From positions 6,932 to 70,931 of IMG/VR virus record IMGVR_UViG_3300012928_003423: DNA of 64,000 nucleotides; one strand, given 5' to 3'. Origin of the DNA: a virus. How positions within the stretch are numbered: the first letter of the stretch is position 1; each line of letters starts with the position of its first letter. Position numbers and translations under genes: made by a program. Shown here in pieces: positions 49,791 through 57,236 of this stretch. The notes beneath the pieces were generated by a model. That model was not told where the DNA came from, made no database searches, and saw only the letters and a list, made by a program, of their open reading frames with translations.

Positions 49791-51022
49791 TAAATTGTAT
49801 AAAAATTAAAATCATTAAAGTTGAAATACATAAAATAATCTCTATCTCCATAAGTAGATATTGCTTTATGTTTTTTGTTTTTAATTAGTTTCTTTTGCAA
49901 ATTTAAATTGTATTTTTCTATTGAACTATCGCAGTAATCATAGCCATTTACAGAATCAAATGCAACCCTTTTTACTAATAAGGTAGAATCTATCATAACA
50001 TGGTTATTATCGCTAGACAAAAGAGACATGCCAGAGTTGCTAGTACTTACTTTTACAACTGATTCTTGATCCCAAAAACAGATTACAGATCCTTCTGCTG
50101 GATAAATACAATTATTAATTTTATCTTTTAATTTATTGGGAGTTTTACTGCAAAAATATATATTTAAAAATTTAGATTTGATGTATTTTTTGAAATTAAA
50201 ATAAAGATTACTTGAAATTTCTTTATGAAAATCCCCGAAAAGAACTACTGTAAAGTCCAAAACAGATCTTAATAAAAAATTGTTACTCAAGCTTTGGTTT
50301 AGAGTTGTAAAATTTATATCTTCAAGCTTCTCCGCAAAGATGCAAAAACTCATTTTTTTTCTAGAATTAGAATTTTCAAGAAAAGTAAAGTAATTGTTTC
50401 TTTCGTTCTCTTTTTTGGCTGGAGGATGATATAGATGAACTCCATTTAAATTTTTTACAACAAAGGGATCGATGTTAGAAATTTTATTTTCAACAAAATC
50501 TAAATCTTCCCATCCCCATCCGTAAAATTTTTCATCAAAACCTCCAACTTTGCAAAAAATATCGGAAGATACTATCAGAGAATGTTTGCCGTAATAATTA
50601 TCTTCATCGTATTTTTTGTAATCTACAGGTCTACCTAGAGCAAATTCATTAGAATCTTGTTCGTTTAATTGGAATATAGAAGAAAACGGTCTTATTGCAT
50701 CTTGATTATTTATTTGACCTAAGACTTTATTAAAGTTAAGAAAAATATCTGAATCCAGAAACCAAACATAAGGAGTTTTTACATATTTAAATGCTAAGTT
50801 ATATAAAAAAGATTTTTTAAAAAAACAGTTAGAATAATGTTTAATTAAAATGTATTTACCTTTATTTTCTACTGAGTCATCTTTGTTTTTACCTTTTACT
50901 TGCTCTGCAATAATAAAAGGTATATCTAATTCAAGCAGATGAGATAATAAAAATTTATAATTCCTTTCTCTGTATGGGCAGGAATTAAGATAAGATATGA
51001 CAATAGTAACTTTTTTAATCAA
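49790..51022 (-). CDS. Glycosyltransferase (GT2 / galactosyltransferase GT7-C-like) with a second degenerate GT-A domain
   Basis: RERNYKF, FKKSFLYN, WFLDSD, VGGFDEKFYGWGWEDLDF, HLYHP; later FDSVNGYD. Confidence 0.8.
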   Translation of the reverse strand: MIKKVTIVISYLNSCPYRERNYKFLLSHLLELDIPFIIAEQVKGKNKDDSVENKGKYILIKHYSNCFFKKSFLYNLAFKYVKTPYVWFLDSDIFLNFNKVLGQINNQDAIRPFSSIFQLNEQDSNEFALGRPVDYKKYDEDNYYGKHSLIVSSDIFCKVGGFDEKFYGWGWEDLDFVENKISNIDPFVVKNLNGVHLYHPPAKKENERNNYFTFLENSNSRKKMSFCIFAEKLEDINFTTLNQSLSNNFLLRSVLDFTVVLFGDFHKEISSNLYFNFKKYIKSKFLNIYFCSKTPNKLKDKINNCIYPAEGSVICFWDQESVVKVSTSNSGMSLLSSDNNHVMIDSTLLVKRVAFDSVNGYDYCDSSIEKYNLNLQKKLIKNKKHKAISTYGDRDYFMYFNFNDFNFYTI

Positions 51023-52032
51023 AAATCGTCTTCCAATGAGCCACTTTGTTGATATTCTCTAACTCGTCTTTCAAAAAAGTTACCCATGGCTTGAACATCA
51101 ACCACTTCACCTAACCAAGGAAATGGATTATTGTCACTTGGAAAACGATAGTCAAGCCCGATTGCTTCAAGCCTTCGATTTCCTATGTAATACATATAAT
51201 CCACGAACATTTCAGCGTTTAAGCCAAGTATACCTGTAGGCAAGACATCGTGAGCATAAGCTATCTCAAGCTCTACTGCTTTTTTAATATGCTCTACAAA
51301 TTCATCTTGTATTTTCTTTGTCCATATAGAAGGATTTTGTTCGATCAATGTGTTAATTAAGTAAGTTCCAAAAGCAATATGAGAACTTTCATCTCTTAAT
51401 GTGTATTTAATCTGATCGGATATTCCTTGTAGTTTGTTTTGCCTACCTAAAGCTAGAAGCATAGCAAACCCACTGAAAAAGAATGTACCTTCACAAACAA
51501 TCCAATATGTTAAGAAGTTTCTTAGAAGCTCTTGTTTGCCCTCTTTGGTTTCAGTAGAAAAATCTGCACGACTAATATCGTTAGTAATTTCCATTAAGAA
51601 ATCATCTTTTGCTTTTATGCTCGGAATATTTTCATAAGCTGCGAAAACTTCTTCGATATCAAGGTCCAAGCTGTCGCAAATATATACAACGGTAAGGTTG
51701 TGTAAACTTTCTTCAAAAGCTTGACGCAAAATGTACTGGCGACATTCAGCATCCGTAACATATCTGAAAGCCGAAAGCAAAAGGTTATTACCAACCAAAG
51801 ACTCGCTTCCAGCAAAAAATCCAAGACAGCGTTTGACGAGGAGTTTTTCATCTTCCGTGATTTCATCATTTTTCCATTGTTTAATATCATTCTGCATGCT
51901 TATTTCAGTAGGCATCCAGTTATTCGCACAACTCTTTAAAAAAAGATCCCATGCATATTTGTGTTTATGAGGTAATATTCTATTTACCCCAGCTATATTC
52001 TTAGTTAATAATTCGCCTGTTTTTGTTTCCAT
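51019..52032 (-). CDS. nrdB: Ribonucleotide reductase beta subunit with class Ic (R2c) signature
   Basis: Ligands E77, E108, H111, E181, E215, H218; Val115 at the radical-Tyr position; C-terminal NFFERRVREYQ. Confidence 0.93.
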   Translation of the reverse strand: METKTGELLTKNIAGVNRILPHKHKYAWDLFLKSCANNWMPTEISMQNDIKQWKNDEITEDEKLLVKRCLGFFAGSESLVGNNLLLSAFRYVTDAECRQYILRQAFEESLHNLTVVYICDSLDLDIEEVFAAYENIPSIKAKDDFLMEITNDISRADFSTETKEGKQELLRNFLTYWIVCEGTFFFSGFAMLLALGRQNKLQGISDQIKYTLRDESSHIAFGTYLINTLIEQNPSIWTKKIQDEFVEHIKKAVELEIAYAHDVLPTGILGLNAEMFVDYMYYIGNRRLEAIGLDYRFPSDNNPFPWLGEVVDVQAMGNFFERRVREYQQSGSLEDDF

Positions 52033-52044
52033 ATATAAAGAACG

Positions 52045-52073
52045 AATATAACGAGATTATAGTTCTTAGTCAA
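52045..52073 (-). promoter_or_regulatory. sigma70-like promoter TTGACT-N17-TATATT upstream of nrdB
   Basis: -35 at 52068-52073, -10 at 52045-52050. Confidence 0.7.
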
Positions 52074-52080
52074 GTATAAA

Positions 52081-52671
52081 TTATTTTATACGAACTTCTT
52101 TCCAGGCAACTTTTCCCTCTATGATTTGATCTCTAATCTTTCTTTGTTTAGAGCTTAACTGGCTTTTGCCGCTTTTGACTTCTATAAATGTAATCTCTTC
52201 TTGACCAAAAGAAACATAGTCTATTGGTTGACCTAAAAAGCTACATTCCTCTGGTTCAAATTCAAATTGATCTAAAAAAGGAGCTAATGTTTCTGCGATA
52301 TGACCCAATCTAACTTCACTACTTTTTTTCTGAGATGTAACTTTGGTTTTTAAATCTCTTTGCTCTTCTAAATCTTCTGTGAGTTTCGCTATAGAAATTT
52401 CAAAGTCCTTTTCTTTGGTTTGTATTTCTATCTTTTTTTCTTCTATAGATTTTCTTTCATGCTCGAAAGATTCTTTTAACGATTCCATACTAAGTCTATG
52501 CTGACTTTCTTTTAGCTCTAAATTTTTTTCTAAATCTTTGAATCTAGCTTCCATTAAAAAATTATCATTTTCTATCTCTTTTAAATAATTAAAAGTTTTT
52601 TTAAATTTTAAATAAAACCCTAAGCAAACTAAGCTTAATAAAAAAAGAGCTGCTGAAAGTGTAAAAATCAA
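52081..52671 (-). CDS. Holliday-junction-resolvase-like endonuclease (Endonuc_Holl type) with an N-terminal TM and coiled coil
   Basis: GHIAETLAPF...FLGQPIDYVSF...FIEVKSGKSQLSSKQRKIRD. Confidence 0.85.
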   Translation of the reverse strand: MIFTLSAALFLLSLVCLGFYLKFKKTFNYLKEIENDNFLMEARFKDLEKNLELKESQHRLSMESLKESFEHERKSIEEKKIEIQTKEKDFEISIAKLTEDLEEQRDLKTKVTSQKKSSEVRLGHIAETLAPFLDQFEFEPEECSFLGQPIDYVSFGQEEITFIEVKSGKSQLSSKQRKIRDQIIEGKVAWKEVRIK

Positions 52672-53696
52672 GAGGGAGCAGATTCTTTGTAAGGGTGCGA
52701 ACCAGATAATAGGCTTTCAATACCCCATTTGTGAGCTAGGTAACCTTCGACTTTTTGACGAACCGTATTGTCCGTATTGTCCAAAAGAATGACTTCTGCA
52801 ATTTTCCCCTCAGGAAATTTATTTTCACTACGATTTGCAAAAAGATAGAACTCTACATTTGATGCCAATTTGGCAGTGTAGTTCCGCACAAGAGTTCCTG
52901 GAAGCGTCTCTCCGTCAACGAGCAATTGATACTTTCCATCATCAGTGAAATCAAGATCGGCACAAAACATGCGAAATCCTGCGAGGCCACTATTACTAGC
53001 AACAGTTGTAGACCCATGAGGAGTTTGATCATTAAAAGTTAAAATTCCTCTAAATTGATTATGATTGCCCGCACCTATCTGCCAATCATGCGAAGCCGCA
53101 TCCATGGATATGACTGCATCTGCGTTGTGGTTAACAGTATCAACACTACACACAATAAAAGCCTGAAGGTTTCCGCTTGTTGGTGTCGAAAAAACATCTT
53201 TCTTGAAAAAGTCATCACCATCCAATTTGATAACATTTAAAGAATTTTGCTTACTTGTTCCTGTAATTGGATTACTACCCGCCTCTGCATTTCCTGCGAG
53301 ATTATTGGAATTGGCCGACTTGTCTGACCATAAGGTTACCTCATTTGATCCGTTCTTTGTAATTGTAGAAGAATCGCTTGCGTCATACCAGGCTAATAAA
53401 ACAGCTGAATCTATATCTGATGGGTCAAATAATGAAGCTACAGAACTTTTTATTCCAGCAACTGTTAATGGTCTAAATCCATTATCATGAGCATCTCCAA
53501 TTGAAGTAATTTCAGAACCTAGGCCAAAATTATGTAACTTCCTGTATAACTCTCTACCTGTGTGGTTTTTATAATAAGCTTCTGATTCTCCTTCAGTTAA
53601 AGCATTTGCTATAGCAGTTTTAAAAGTCTCTAAATTCGCAACTAACTCGGATTTAGAAGCTTGATGGATTTTTTTATTTAATTGCTGAAGGCTCAT
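52668..53696 (-). CDS. Concanavalin-A-like (LamG-type) domain protein, probable virion/receptor-binding
   Basis: LAWYDASDSSTI...VTLWSDKS...GKIAEVI...RQKVEGYLAHKWG...HPYK; GTGTAAT 7 nt upstream. Confidence 0.7.
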   Translation of the reverse strand: MSLQQLNKKIHQASKSELVANLETFKTAIANALTEGESEAYYKNHTGRELYRKLHNFGLGSEITSIGDAHDNGFRPLTVAGIKSSVASLFDPSDIDSAVLLAWYDASDSSTITKNGSNEVTLWSDKSANSNNLAGNAEAGSNPITGTSKQNSLNVIKLDGDDFFKKDVFSTPTSGNLQAFIVCSVDTVNHNADAVISMDAASHDWQIGAGNHNQFRGILTFNDQTPHGSTTVASNSGLAGFRMFCADLDFTDDGKYQLLVDGETLPGTLVRNYTAKLASNVEFYLFANRSENKFPEGKIAEVILLDNTDNTVRQKVEGYLAHKWGIESLLSGSHPYKESAPS

Positions 53697-53714
53697 GTAG
53701 AATATTACACCAAA

Positions 53715-54152
53715 TCAACGCCTCTTACTAGGAATAGCATAAAATCCTACGACCATAAAACATAAATCGATAAAAGAACTAAGCATAAGCCCGCCAGTTA
53801 GAGTTACTACTTCCCAATCTTTTCCACCAAATATATAACTAAAAAATCCCCATTTGGAACCCTCTCCTCTTGGTACTATGATGTCATAAGTTATGTCTGG
53901 ATTATGAGCATAATAAACCATTAAATAACATAGTGTAAAAGTTATACTCATAAATAAAATTCTACGAGTTACTTTTACAAAAGGGTCGGAAGCTTGAGTG
54001 GCTTGATTCTTAGCCATAGCCTCAAACATTTTTTCATCTCTAATAGCAAGCATCATTTGATCTTGCCTTTTCTGCTCTAACCATGCATTTACAAGGTTAC
54101 AAGCGAGTTTTATGCCCGCACCTAATACAGTGTTTAGGATAGGACCCATCAT
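53715..54152 (-). CDS. Membrane protein (holin-like)
   Basis: N-terminal amphipathic helix, TMs ILFMSITFTLCYLMVYY and GGLMLSSFIDLCFMVVGFY. Confidence 0.6.
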   Translation of the reverse strand: MMGPILNTVLGAGIKLACNLVNAWLEQKRQDQMMLAIRDEKMFEAMAKNQATQASDPFVKVTRRILFMSITFTLCYLMVYYAHNPDITYDIIVPRGEGSKWGFFSYIFGGKDWEVVTLTGGLMLSSFIDLCFMVVGFYAIPSKRR

Positions 54153-54155
54153 TTA

Positions 54156-54344
54156 TCAAATACTATCAAATGCCTCTTTACTGCAAAACTTAGTTAATTT
54201 TGTGCCATCATCATCAACGGCAGCAAAAGCATATCTAATGGTTTTTTTTCCAGCTTTAGAGACTTTTTCATAAGTTTTTTTCTCAACTTTAGATTCGTCG
54301 ATACTGACTTTAGTTTTTTTCTTTACATTGTAAAATTCAATCAT
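54156..54344 (-). CDS. Small basic beta protein (Cc1/DUF5679-like)
   Basis: IEFYNVKKKTKV...TIRYAFAAVDDDGTKLTKF; Lys-rich, 62 aa. Confidence 0.55.
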   Translation of the reverse strand: MIEFYNVKKKTKVSIDESKVEKKTYEKVSKAGKKTIRYAFAAVDDDGTKLTKFCSKEAFDSI

Positions 54345-54375
54345 GTTATTATCGGGTTATTATTATAATAAAATA

Positions 54376-54801
54376 TTATTTGTATTTTTCTAAATGTTTT
54401 TTAATTTTTTCAAATAATTTTTCTTCTATCTTGTAAGGAAAATTCTCAACAGAATCAACACTCCACCACATATATGCAGTATGCTCTGCATTTAAGCAAA
54501 CATTTGGCAAGTAGTTTAAGTTGCAAAAATGTAAATGAAAAATATTTTTTTCAAAATTTTTTAAATGACCTGCATACTCAAGATCTTCAACAGATATTTT
54601 TATTTTAGATTCTTCATATAGTTCTCTAACCGCACATTCAGCAGGAGTCTCGCTACCCTCCATCGATCCGCAAAATATAGACCAATGCTCTGGAAAAGGT
54701 ACTGGAATTTTTTTCTCCCCCCAATATTTGGGTCTTTTCGCAAGGAGAAATGATTTTCCTTGAGATATAACACAAACTCCAGCAGACTTCTTTATTGGCA
54801 T
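54376..54801 (-). CDS. Nudix hydrolase
   Basis: WSIFCGSMEGSETPAECAVRELYEESKI Nudix box; LNAEH. Confidence 0.9.
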   Translation of the reverse strand: MPIKKSAGVCVISQGKSFLLAKRPKYWGEKKIPVPFPEHWSIFCGSMEGSETPAECAVRELYEESKIKISVEDLEYAGHLKNFEKNIFHLHFCNLNYLPNVCLNAEHTAYMWWSVDSVENFPYKIEEKLFEKIKKHLEKYK

Positions 54802-57236
54802 GATTCGCAGATTTCTCCATTTTTCATAGCTTCAATACTGCAAGCTTGAGATTCTTGATCTGAAGACCCTGTGGACTTCTCCACTTTACTTGCAGCCCTA
54901 TTTCTTAAATAGTAAGTGGTTTTTAAGCCAGCCTCCCAAGATGCAGTATATATGTCATTTAAATACTTTAAAGAAGTGGTTTTATTGTAAAGATTAAAGC
55001 TCACAGCTTGATCTATCCATTTTTGACGAACTGAATTACATTCGATTAATTTAAACATATCTCTGTCAAATGCAGTTTTATACTTTTCTTTAAACTCTTG
55101 AGGGATATTTCCATTCGCTAGAGATAAATCCCCATCTATACTTTTAACAAAAGATGCTATCTCAGGATTCCATAGCCCCTTAGATTTCATGTCATTAACA
55201 AAATGATCGTTAGTTATATAGAAGTTGCCACTTTTATTTTCATAAACAAAGAGGACGGAAAAGTTTGGCTCTATACTCTGCTCCACTCCATTGATATATC
55301 CTATTGTAGCCGTAGGAGCAATAGCCATAACATTTGAATTTCGCATTCCAAATTCAGCAACATGTTGACGAACTCTAGCCCAATCTTCTAAAGTTTGACC
55401 TTTACCTGTTTTGGGTTGTTTTTGTTTGCCCCTGTAAGCCATTAAATTATTATAAGAGTCAATTGGAAATACATTTCCACTCCAAAGAGAGCCTTCATAA
55501 GTTTCGTACTTACCTCTTTCAGCAGCTAAAAGAGAGCTAGCATATATGGCGTGCATTGAGTAAAATTCAAAAATTTCATTATTAAACTTAACTGCCTCGT
55601 CACTATCAATAGATATATTTAATTTATGCAATACATCGTGAAGCGACATCATGCCTAATCCTATAGGTCTATTTCTTAAGTTAGAGTTTTTTGATTCTTT
55701 TGTTGGGTAAAAATTAAGATCTATTACATTGTCCAACATTCTAATAGCTGTATGTATAGTCTTTTCTAACTTTTTATAATTTATAGAATTATCTTTATTA
55801 AGATGGTTTAATAAATTTATAGAACCTAGATTGCAAACAGCAGTCTCTCCGATTTCAATTTTCTCCCCTTCTTTATATTTAGAAGGTTTAGTATGCAAAG
55901 TAATTTCAGTACATAGATTGGAACTTCTAACAGCTCCTTCATGTTGATTCGTATACCTGATGTTGCAAGCATCCTTAAATGTGTTCCATGGGTGAGAAGT
56001 TTCAAATAAAACCTTGAGCATTTTTTTCCAAAGCTCTTTTGCTGGCATTTTTCTAAAATTCTTAATGTCGCCATATTCTGCCGCTCGACATGCATCTTCA
56101 TATCGATCATCAAAATCTTTACCAAAATAATCATGCAAGGTTTTTCCGTCTTCATAAACCATTTCACTTGGATCGAAGAAATACCAATCTTCTTCTTTCT
56201 GAACTCTCCTCATGAACTCATCAGGTATCCAAGATGCAGTATTCATGTCATGGCAACGAAGCCTGTCATCCCCAGTATTTCTTCTTAAATTGAGAAAGTC
56301 TTCAAAATCAAGATGCCAAGGCTCAAGATATGCACACCCAGCACCTGGCCTTTTCCCACCTTGATTTACTGCCACTAATAAATCGTTATATATTTTTAAC
56401 CAAGGGACAAGTCCACTAGATATTCCATTTGTGCCTTGAATGTGAGCGCCTGTAGATCTAAAAGGCGTAACATCTAAACCTAAGCCACCTGCATATTTTG
56501 ATTTTCTGGCTTCTTGCCAAGCTCCATCAAAAATTCCATCTATACTATCATCAAAAGTATTTAAATAACAAGAGCTAAGCTGAGATCTAACTGTACCACT
56601 ATTAAATAATGTGGGAGTTGATGATGTGTAAAGAAATTGACTAAATAAATTATAAAATTCAATAGCCTTAGCATCTTTATTTCTTTCATTTATTGCAAGC
56701 CCCATAGCTACTCTCATCCAAAAAGACTGAGGAGCTTCCATGATTTTATCATCTTGCCTTATAAAATATCTATCAGTTAAAATCTGTATGCCTAAATATT
56801 TGAAAGATAGATCTCTTCTTATTTTTATAGCTTCAGATAACTTAACTAAATCAAAATCCAAAAGCCTATTGTCTAGTCTGCCGTCTTTAACTAACTTTTT
56901 AGTATTTTGTATAAAACTTTTTCTGTACTGAAGTTTAAATGTATCTGAATCAACGCCCTCTTTAAAAACTTCTTTATATACCGTGTTTAATAGTAGTCTA
57001 GCTGCAACAAAACTATAGTTTGGCTCTTTTTGTATTTTTTCACGAGAGCTTAATATTAAAGCTTGATCTATTTCTGTAGTCTTAATTTTATCATAAAGTT
57101 GGAGTTGAGCATCCAATACAATCTCGCTAGCCGAAACTTCTTCTATATCATCACAAGCCCTTTGTGCTATCTTATTTATTTTTTCTACATTAAATTGCTC
57201 TAATCTACCGTTTCTTTTTTTTACTTTTATGTCCAT
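54792..57236 (-). CDS. nrdA: Ribonucleotide reductase alpha subunit (class I) with an N-terminal ATP cone
   Basis: VKKRNGR ATP cone, STPTLFNSGT, LSSCYL, SNLCTEI, VCNLGS, APTAT, TTYYLR, C-terminal CESC. Confidence 0.96.
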   Translation of the reverse strand: MDIKVKKRNGRLEQFNVEKINKIAQRACDDIEEVSASEIVLDAQLQLYDKIKTTEIDQALILSSREKIQKEPNYSFVAARLLLNTVYKEVFKEGVDSDTFKLQYRKSFIQNTKKLVKDGRLDNRLLDFDLVKLSEAIKIRRDLSFKYLGIQILTDRYFIRQDDKIMEAPQSFWMRVAMGLAINERNKDAKAIEFYNLFSQFLYTSSTPTLFNSGTVRSQLSSCYLNTFDDSIDGIFDGAWQEARKSKYAGGLGLDVTPFRSTGAHIQGTNGISSGLVPWLKIYNDLLVAVNQGGKRPGAGCAYLEPWHLDFEDFLNLRRNTGDDRLRCHDMNTASWIPDEFMRRVQKEEDWYFFDPSEMVYEDGKTLHDYFGKDFDDRYEDACRAAEYGDIKNFRKMPAKELWKKMLKVLFETSHPWNTFKDACNIRYTNQHEGAVRSSNLCTEITLHTKPSKYKEGEKIEIGETAVCNLGSINLLNHLNKDNSINYKKLEKTIHTAIRMLDNVIDLNFYPTKESKNSNLRNRPIGLGMMSLHDVLHKLNISIDSDEAVKFNNEIFEFYSMHAIYASSLLAAERGKYETYEGSLWSGNVFPIDSYNNLMAYRGKQKQPKTGKGQTLEDWARVRQHVAEFGMRNSNVMAIAPTATIGYINGVEQSIEPNFSVLFVYENKSGNFYITNDHFVNDMKSKGLWNPEIASFVKSIDGDLSLANGNIPQEFKEKYKTAFDRDMFKLIECNSVRQKWIDQAVSFNLYNKTTSLKYLNDIYTASWEAGLKTTYYLRNRAASKVEKSTGSSDQESQACSIEAMKNGEICESCQ

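Follow-up and report, generated by a model that had tools for sequence, protein, structure and literature searches.

The window examined here is a 64,000-nucleotide stretch of viral DNA, bases 6932-70931 of the 73,444-bp IMG/VR record IMGVR_UViG_3300012928_003423 (G000), which carries on its minus strand the gene nrdB for a beta subunit of ribonucleotide reductase (RNR). This beta subunit displays all of the class Ic sequence and fold features that were examined, and the class I gene pair to which it belongs is complete and strongly constrained. It probably represents a working beta subunit of a tyrosyl-radical-free class Ic RNR (R2c, NrdBzc-like), in which Mn/Fe would be the most likely cofactor. 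The gene and its diagnostic residues, numbered along the phage protein with Chlamydia trachomatis (Ct) equivalents, are as follows.

51019..52032, minus strand: nrdB, encoding the 337-residue RNR beta subunit, class Ic in type and a member of the NrdBz family
51802..51804, minus strand: codon (GAG) of Glu77, the first metal ligand, equivalent to Ct E89, where class Ia has Asp (alignment and script)
51688..51711, minus strand: E108-x-x-H111-x-x-x-V115, with the ExxH that binds metal and, at the position of the radical Tyr (Phe127 in Ct), Val encoded by GTT
51379..51492, minus strand: E181, Y210 (equivalent to Ct Y222), E215 and H218, second half of the metal site (alignment and script)
51022..51054, minus strand: C-terminal tail from Tyr327 (Ct Y338, Escherichia coli Y356) to the acidic end SLEDDF, predicted to bind NrdA

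NrdB matches the Pfam family Ribonuc_red_sm (PF00268; E-value of 1.8e-76) and scores 454 bits against NCBIfam NF005550, well above the curated cut-off of 309. A phmmer search of the Protein Data Bank (PDB) revealed that its closest structural relatives are the R2c of C. trachomatis (PDB codes 1syy, 2ani and 4d8f; E-value of 6e-115), followed by that of Saccharopolyspora erythraea (PDB code 6y2n; E-value of 8e-106), while the remaining matches had E-values of 1e-36 or worse. The alignment with the Ct protein (52-53% identity) runs without gaps from residue 8, aligned with chain residue 20, to approximately residue 295, and throughout this span the constant offset of +12 proposed in an earlier note on this DNA is exact; a one-residue gap then reduces the offset to +11, thus pairing Y327 with Ct Y338. 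The AlphaFold2 (AF2) model of NrdB has a predicted local distance difference test (pLDDT) score of 85.9, its C-terminal tail being disordered, as expected. The 13 best Foldseek matches of this model are all chains of Ct NrdB, including Mn/Fe-loaded forms (template modelling (TM) score of 0.86-0.92 and root mean square deviation (rmsd) of 1.4-1.6 Å). The family matches, the Foldseek result and the placement of the protein within NrdBz on trees identify a ferritin-like R2 fold of the NrdBz family. The class Id structures 8dq3 and 5olk share only 19-20% identity with NrdB.

All residues singled out by the earlier note (E77, E108, H111, V115, Y117, E181, Y210, E215 and H218) were located in the translated protein by script, as were W39 and Y327. 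The alignment confirms that Glu77 occupies the position of Ct E89, where Glu replaces the Asp of class Ia, and the five other ligands of the metal site (E108, H111, E181, E215 and H218) are intact. At the position of the radical Tyr (E. coli Y122, Ct F127), where class Ic proteins carry a redox-inert Phe, Leu or Val, NrdB has Val115; the segment HNLTV(115)VY lies beneath HTHTF(127)LY of the Ct protein, and the F127Y mutant 2ani displays Tyr in the same column. Ct Y338 and E. coli Y356 are the tyrosines that hand the radical to the alpha subunit, and the equivalents of this residue and of Ct W51 are both present in NrdB, together with a C-terminal alpha-binding tail. The pairing of Asp as first ligand with a radical Tyr, which defines class Ia (NrdBza), is absent (Glu77, Val115), and so is the combination of Glu with a retained Tyr that marks class Id (Mn2, NrdBi), there being no Tyr at position 115. 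In the RNRdb scheme an NrdBz with Tyr at the radical site belongs to subclass Ia and one with Phe, Leu or Val to subclass Ic (Harrison et al. 2019, PMC6370689), and NrdB is thus assigned to class Ic by its Val.

The signature is retained in the 121 close homologs with at least 81% identity to NrdB. Glu77 and the final Phe are invariant in this set, W39 and Y327 are each kept in 120 sequences, and position 115 is occupied by Val (76 sequences) or Ile (45 sequences) and never by Tyr. The Ile of these sister phages does not figure in the classical Phe/Leu/Val list. The two diagnostic positions also co-vary across the family: in 39 cellular NrdBz proteins of approximately 50% identity, Glu as first ligand is always accompanied by Phe and Asp always by Tyr, and in the 51 rows used for the tree described below, Glu-first rows carry Phe, Val or Ile only and Asp-first rows Tyr only. 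The few sequences combining Glu with Tyr appear among representatives of clusters built at 50% identity; they are distant (32-38% identity), and we take them to fit the class Id pattern. Many of the nearest such representatives (P0123, P0124, P0129, P0130, P0131, P0134 and P0135) are NrdBs of 640-660 residues whose matches fall into two stretches, the pattern that intein insertions would produce, and the majority of these display a Glu plus Val/Phe signature.

Comparisons within the lineage drew on three related records of approximately 204 kb (G001, G002 and G003, the last of 203 kb), all 100% complete according to CheckV. Of the proteins that G000 and G003 have in common, NrdB (G003:C1:45753-46763) is far more conserved than any other, presenting 95% amino-acid identity, while other shared open reading frames (ORFs) range from 22 to 81% (NrdA 81%, DnaE 62%, helicase 57%). 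Where the NrdB residues are identical, only 53% of the third codon positions agree, a value no different from that of the other genes, and synonymous sites are saturated. A protein identity of 95% despite such saturation reveals very strong purifying selection, which argues against a decoy or decaying gene; a recent horizontal transfer, considered as a cause of the high identity, was ruled out by the same saturation. Each of the three complete genomes has exactly one NrdB, and neither a second copy nor an NrdI flavodoxin was found in them. Conservation and saturated synonymous sites together indicate that NrdB is a working enzyme subunit.

The partner gene nrdA lies 2.8 kb upstream of nrdB, and the five genes that the earlier note had placed between them are indeed present as five minus-strand ORFs (intervening block 52081..54801). 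The features of this region are the following.

54792..57236, minus strand: nrdA, 814-residue alpha subunit with one ATP-cone, NLC(442)TE, Y775-Y776 and C-terminal CESC
54376-54801, minus strand: NUDIX hydrolase
54156-54344, minus strand: ORF of 62 residues
53715-54152, minus strand: ORF of 145 residues
52668-53696, minus strand: ORF of 342 residues
52081-52671, minus strand: Holliday-junction-resolvase-like endonuclease
52045..52073, minus strand: sigma-70-like TTGACT-17-TATATT within the 48 nt that precede nrdB, no more than a match to the pattern
57357-57329, minus strand: sigma-70-like TTGACT-17-TAACAT in the gap upstream of nrdA, a pattern match only

NrdA comprises the Pfam ATP-cone, lgN (all-alpha) and barrel domains, scores 1008 bits against NF005544 (cut-off 965) and finds Pseudomonas aeruginosa NrdA as its top PDB match (PDB code 5im3; E-value of 7e-238). 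Its catalytic motif SSNLC442TE, the relay pair Y775-Y776 and the redox pair in the C-terminal CESC were all identified. The single ATP-cone spans residues 3-87, and the alignment with the phage protein begins at residue 148 in P. aeruginosa NrdA, a protein of 963 residues, and at position 237 in the chlamydial-type model NF009029, which has 1046 positions, the N-terminal parts of both lacking a counterpart in the phage NrdA. The earlier note also endowed nrdA and nrdB each with its own promoter, a claim that the sequence does not bear out as stated, since sigma-70-like hexamers occur at chance frequency in this AT-rich region (26 found versus 26.2 expected from shuffled sequence). Separate promoters, as predicted from the two pattern matches, are nevertheless plausible. 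The distance between the two genes varies in the lineage, from 2.8 kb here to approximately 15 kb in G003, 27 kb on opposite strands in G001 and 46 kb in G002, and this 15-46 kb spacing, once on opposite strands, fits independent transcription. At its other end, the stop codon of nrdB overlaps with the TTG listed as the start of a downstream 410-residue glycosyltransferase-like ORF (TTTTTGATT; overlap at 51019-51022), which suggests translational coupling of the two genes if that start is real.

Elsewhere the window carries genes of replication and nucleotide metabolism (DnaE, a DnaB-type helicase, a RecA-like protein and an ATPase of the Clp type), together with three tRNAs and a large number of genes for sugar modification; no structural hallmark genes were found within it. 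Of the 85 ORFs of G000, 55 have homologs in G003, and their order is largely preserved. The hallmarks encoded by G003, namely a large terminase (phrog_2, E-value of 6e-25; also above the cut-off of PF03237), proteins of the tail fibre/baseplate, minor tail proteins and rIIA, place the lineage among the tailed bacteriophages (Caudoviricetes). In G003 an ORF of 3565 residues (G003:C1:35004-45698) ends 55 bp upstream of nrdB, and further ORFs of 2940 and 2003 residues lie at 176-191 kb. The lineage is marine, as many NrdB homologs derive from Tara and other ocean assemblies, and the contig represents part of the genome, approximately 204 kb in size, of an uncultured tailed phage from the sea. By DnaE no cultured phage is close (best identity at most 31%), which yields no host or lineage lead.

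Relatives of NrdB are abundant in metagenomes. At least 283 IMG/VR contigs encode one, the 80 best of them sharing 91-96% identity, and matches to NrdB at an E-value of 1e-30 or better extend to 3906 protein clusters. The earlier description of the enzyme as unusual among phage RNRs thus holds for deposited phages but not for metagenomic ones: a tblastn search of INPHARED (August 2025) returned nearest NrdBs of 42-45% identity, all of the Asp/Tyr class Ia type (Pseudomonas phages Peetri, Lauda and others). The two best hits of that search, labelled "Acinetobacter phage MD-2021a" (L091, CAKLQH020000007.1, and CAKLQF020000011.1), were set aside, as they are bacterial chromosome contigs. They carry rstAB, metE and LysR/TetR regulators alongside an Asp/Tyr class Ia NrdB, and by this gene content they look like pieces of an Acinetobacter chromosome. 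At least one deposited viral genome does encode an R2c-like subunit, namely that of the hot-spring Aquificae Joseph's Coat Spring virus (L195:2944-3858, BK013346.1), whose NrdB has Glu as first ligand and Phe at the Tyr site (34% identity). Among cellular genome contigs, a single-protein search found the phage NrdB in only three contigs of metagenome-assembled genomes (MAGs; L088, L089 and L090), labelled Cellvibrionales, Woesebacteria and Pseudomonadales, one of them of 210,818 bp. These are probably mis-binned phage genomes, and the fact that two of the three labels are gammaproteobacterial provides at most a weak host lead. A different phage-like lineage (L173 and L174, JGI 3300045354 and 3300045356) carries a Glu plus Ile NrdB of 55% identity adjoining DHFR, thymidylate synthase and RNA ligase, and it also encodes a 1570-residue intein-bearing NrdA and a 1592-residue large terminase with several inteins. 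A 2026 bioRxiv preprint (PMC12918982) describes a marine viral "subclass Ic-like" RNR clade in GOV 2.0 with Ile or Val at the radical-Tyr site, comprising 269 sequences (1.44% of GOV 2.0 viral RNRs), anti-correlated with modelled iron, reaching its maximum at the deep chlorophyll layer and having no characterised member. Matched by that description rather than by sequences, the clade is very probably the one to which the NrdB reported here belongs.

The earlier note considered the enzyme consistent with a host of the Planctomycetes-Verrucomicrobia-Chlamydiae (PVC) lineage. Cellular relatives, retrieved by a search with a four-sequence alignment, do not sustain this suggestion. R2c is present in 64 of 80 sampled Chlamydiota genomes at 49-53% identity to NrdB, which equals the 48-52% observed for betaproteobacterial class Ia proteins, and R2c-type NrdB is widespread, occurring also in Alphaproteobacteria (Bradyrhizobium, Devosiaceae), Actinobacteria (Saccharopolyspora, Nocardiopsis), Halothiobacillus/Guyparkeria, Bdellovibrionota (Bdellovibrionales), Planctomycetota and Verrucomicrobiota. 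In a maximum-likelihood tree of the 51 rows, computed with the two trait columns removed, the viral Glu plus Val/Ile sequences form a monophyletic clade (100/100), which has a long stem (1.2 changes per site) and is sister, with moderate support (87/85), to an R2c clade of Chlamydiota, Verrucomicrobiota, Planctomycetota and Bdellovibrionales. The class Ic state requires two changes on this tree. A single clade of all Glu/non-Tyr NrdBz proteins was rejected by the approximately unbiased (AU) test (p-AU of 0.007), while a grouping of the viral clade with the alphaproteobacterial and actinobacterial R2c clade was borderline and not rejected (AU p of 0.054). The phage nrdB may thus share an old origin with PVC-type R2c, a deep sister link that bears on the ancestry of the gene and not on the present host.

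By analogy with the Ct enzyme, O2 (or H2O2) would oxidise the dinuclear metal site of NrdB, most likely Mn/Fe as in C. trachomatis, to a high-valent state, with Mn(IV)/Fe(III) taking the place of the tyrosyl radical. This state would store the oxidising equivalent without a Tyr radical and pass it via Y327 into NrdA, where Y775/Y776 would relay it to C442 and so initiate the reduction of nucleotides. A marine phage would be likely to benefit by saving iron, or through a cofactor free of a fragile Tyr radical, rather than through a link to a PVC host. The rationale of H2O2 and NO tolerance for a Mn/Fe RNR stems from the Chlamydia literature, and a saving of iron is no less plausible a rationale in a phage of the ocean.

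Several points weigh against the assignment to a Mn/Fe class Ic enzyme. Metal content and activity cannot be read from sequence, and the long stem of the viral clade separates it from all characterised R2c proteins. Class Id also has Glu as first ligand but uses Mn2, so that Glu by itself leaves the metal undecided. In addition, the preprint on the marine clade withholds a class Ic assignment, the Ile and Val of its clade differing from its Phe/Leu references and no member being characterised (PMC12918982). An alternative is a catalytic subunit that lacks the radical Tyr but employs another metallocofactor, for instance the Mn(IV)/Mn(III) of class Id or an Fe/Fe centre in a high-valent state, with a Val/Ile pocket that might tune the metal. 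Such a cofactor is in keeping with the Glu ligand common to class Id, with the distinct, long-branched viral clade and its Val/Ile in place of the Phe of every cellular R2c sampled, and with the preprint, in which the cofactor is left open (PMC12918982). It is nevertheless unlikely, as NrdB is nearest in both sequence and fold to the Mn/Fe R2c, while class Id retains its Tyr and belongs to a different RNRdb group, sequences with Glu and Tyr being only distantly related to NrdB. A related proposal, somewhat speculative and about as doubtful, is that the Val/Ile clade constitutes a functionally distinct, virus-specific tyrosine-less RNR, whose smaller aliphatic pocket would alter metal selectivity or cofactor potential, for example through a stricter Mn preference that saves iron.

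The missing radical Tyr could also be expected of a non-catalytic R2 homolog, whether it acted on the host RNR as decoy or regulator or served as an R2lox-type oxidase. This is very improbable for a protein under such strong purifying selection, in which the six ligands, W39, Y327 and the alpha-binding tail are all intact and whose complete cognate NrdA is encoded 2.8 kb away; in addition, NrdB falls far below the cut-off of the R2lox model NF006200 (74 versus 194 bits). Equally, a conventional tyrosyl-radical enzyme might use Tyr117, two residues downstream of Val115 and kept in 120 of the 121 close homologs, as a shifted radical site. The corresponding Tyr in the R2c of C. trachomatis (Y129) bears no radical, the residue is Thr in the viral-clade relatives L090 and P0126 and Val or Asp in more distant Glu-type representatives, and Glu as first ligand is never paired with a radical Tyr in this family, as observed in the 39 cellular NrdBz proteins; a radical at Tyr117 is thus the least credible of these explanations. 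The class Ic reading with a probable Mn/Fe cofactor remains the one that best accommodates the sequence, the fold and the selection pattern.

The type of RNR reflects the metals and oxidants needed by a replicating phage, and a tyrosine-less, probably Mn/Fe, enzyme in abundant marine phages of approximately 200 kb would tie viral DNA synthesis to the supply of manganese and iron. If the Val/Ile variant were indeed functionally distinct and specific to viruses, for example in its preference for Mn, it would be the first heterobimetallic RNR of viral origin, through which abundant giant phages of the ocean would be adapted to water poor in iron. Because NrdB is so extremely conserved, it would serve well as a marker gene and is well suited to a first biochemical study of a viral class Ic enzyme. 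The gain is incremental, given that this class of enzyme is known and that a preprint has already drawn attention to the clade (PMC12918982). The annotation is sound, and NrdB is an ordinary yet uncharacterised viral branch of a known kind of enzyme.

Compared with known systems, NrdB shares the NrdBz family and 42-52% identity with class Ia NrdBza proteins of Betaproteobacteria, Pseudomonas, Acinetobacter and Pseudomonas phage vB_PpuM-Peetri, which differ in having Asp as first ligand and Tyr at the radical site. The S. erythraea R2c (6Y2N) and its clade from Alphaproteobacteria, Actinobacteria and Halothiobacillus resemble the phage protein in combining Glu with a non-Tyr residue (approximately 48-49% identity) but have a separate origin of the class Ic state on the tree. 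The likeness is closest to the R2c of C. trachomatis (PDB codes 1SYY, 4D8F, 4D8G, 4M1H and 4M1I), which belongs to the same NrdBz/NF005550 family and shares the six ligands with Glu as the first and a redox-inert residue at the Tyr site, its W51, Y222 and Y338 all having equivalents in NrdB. The Ct enzyme differs in its Phe127, where the phage has Val (Ile in sister phages), in that the phage gene is viral, and in its partner subunit; the phage NrdA, with its one ATP-cone, is of the Pseudomonas type (NF005544) and falls below the cut-off for the chlamydial NF009029 (approximately 1046 positions). With the GOV 2.0 "Ic-like" clade, as described in the preprint (PMC12918982), the system shares its occurrence on marine viral contigs, an alpha subunit nearest to NrdAz and a beta subunit whose radical-Tyr site is occupied by Ile or Val. 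As far as its accessible text goes, the preprint reports only the missing Tyr, to which the present analysis adds the Glu first ligand, the relay residues, the context of a phage of approximately 204 kb, the pattern of selection and the sister link to PVC-type R2c.

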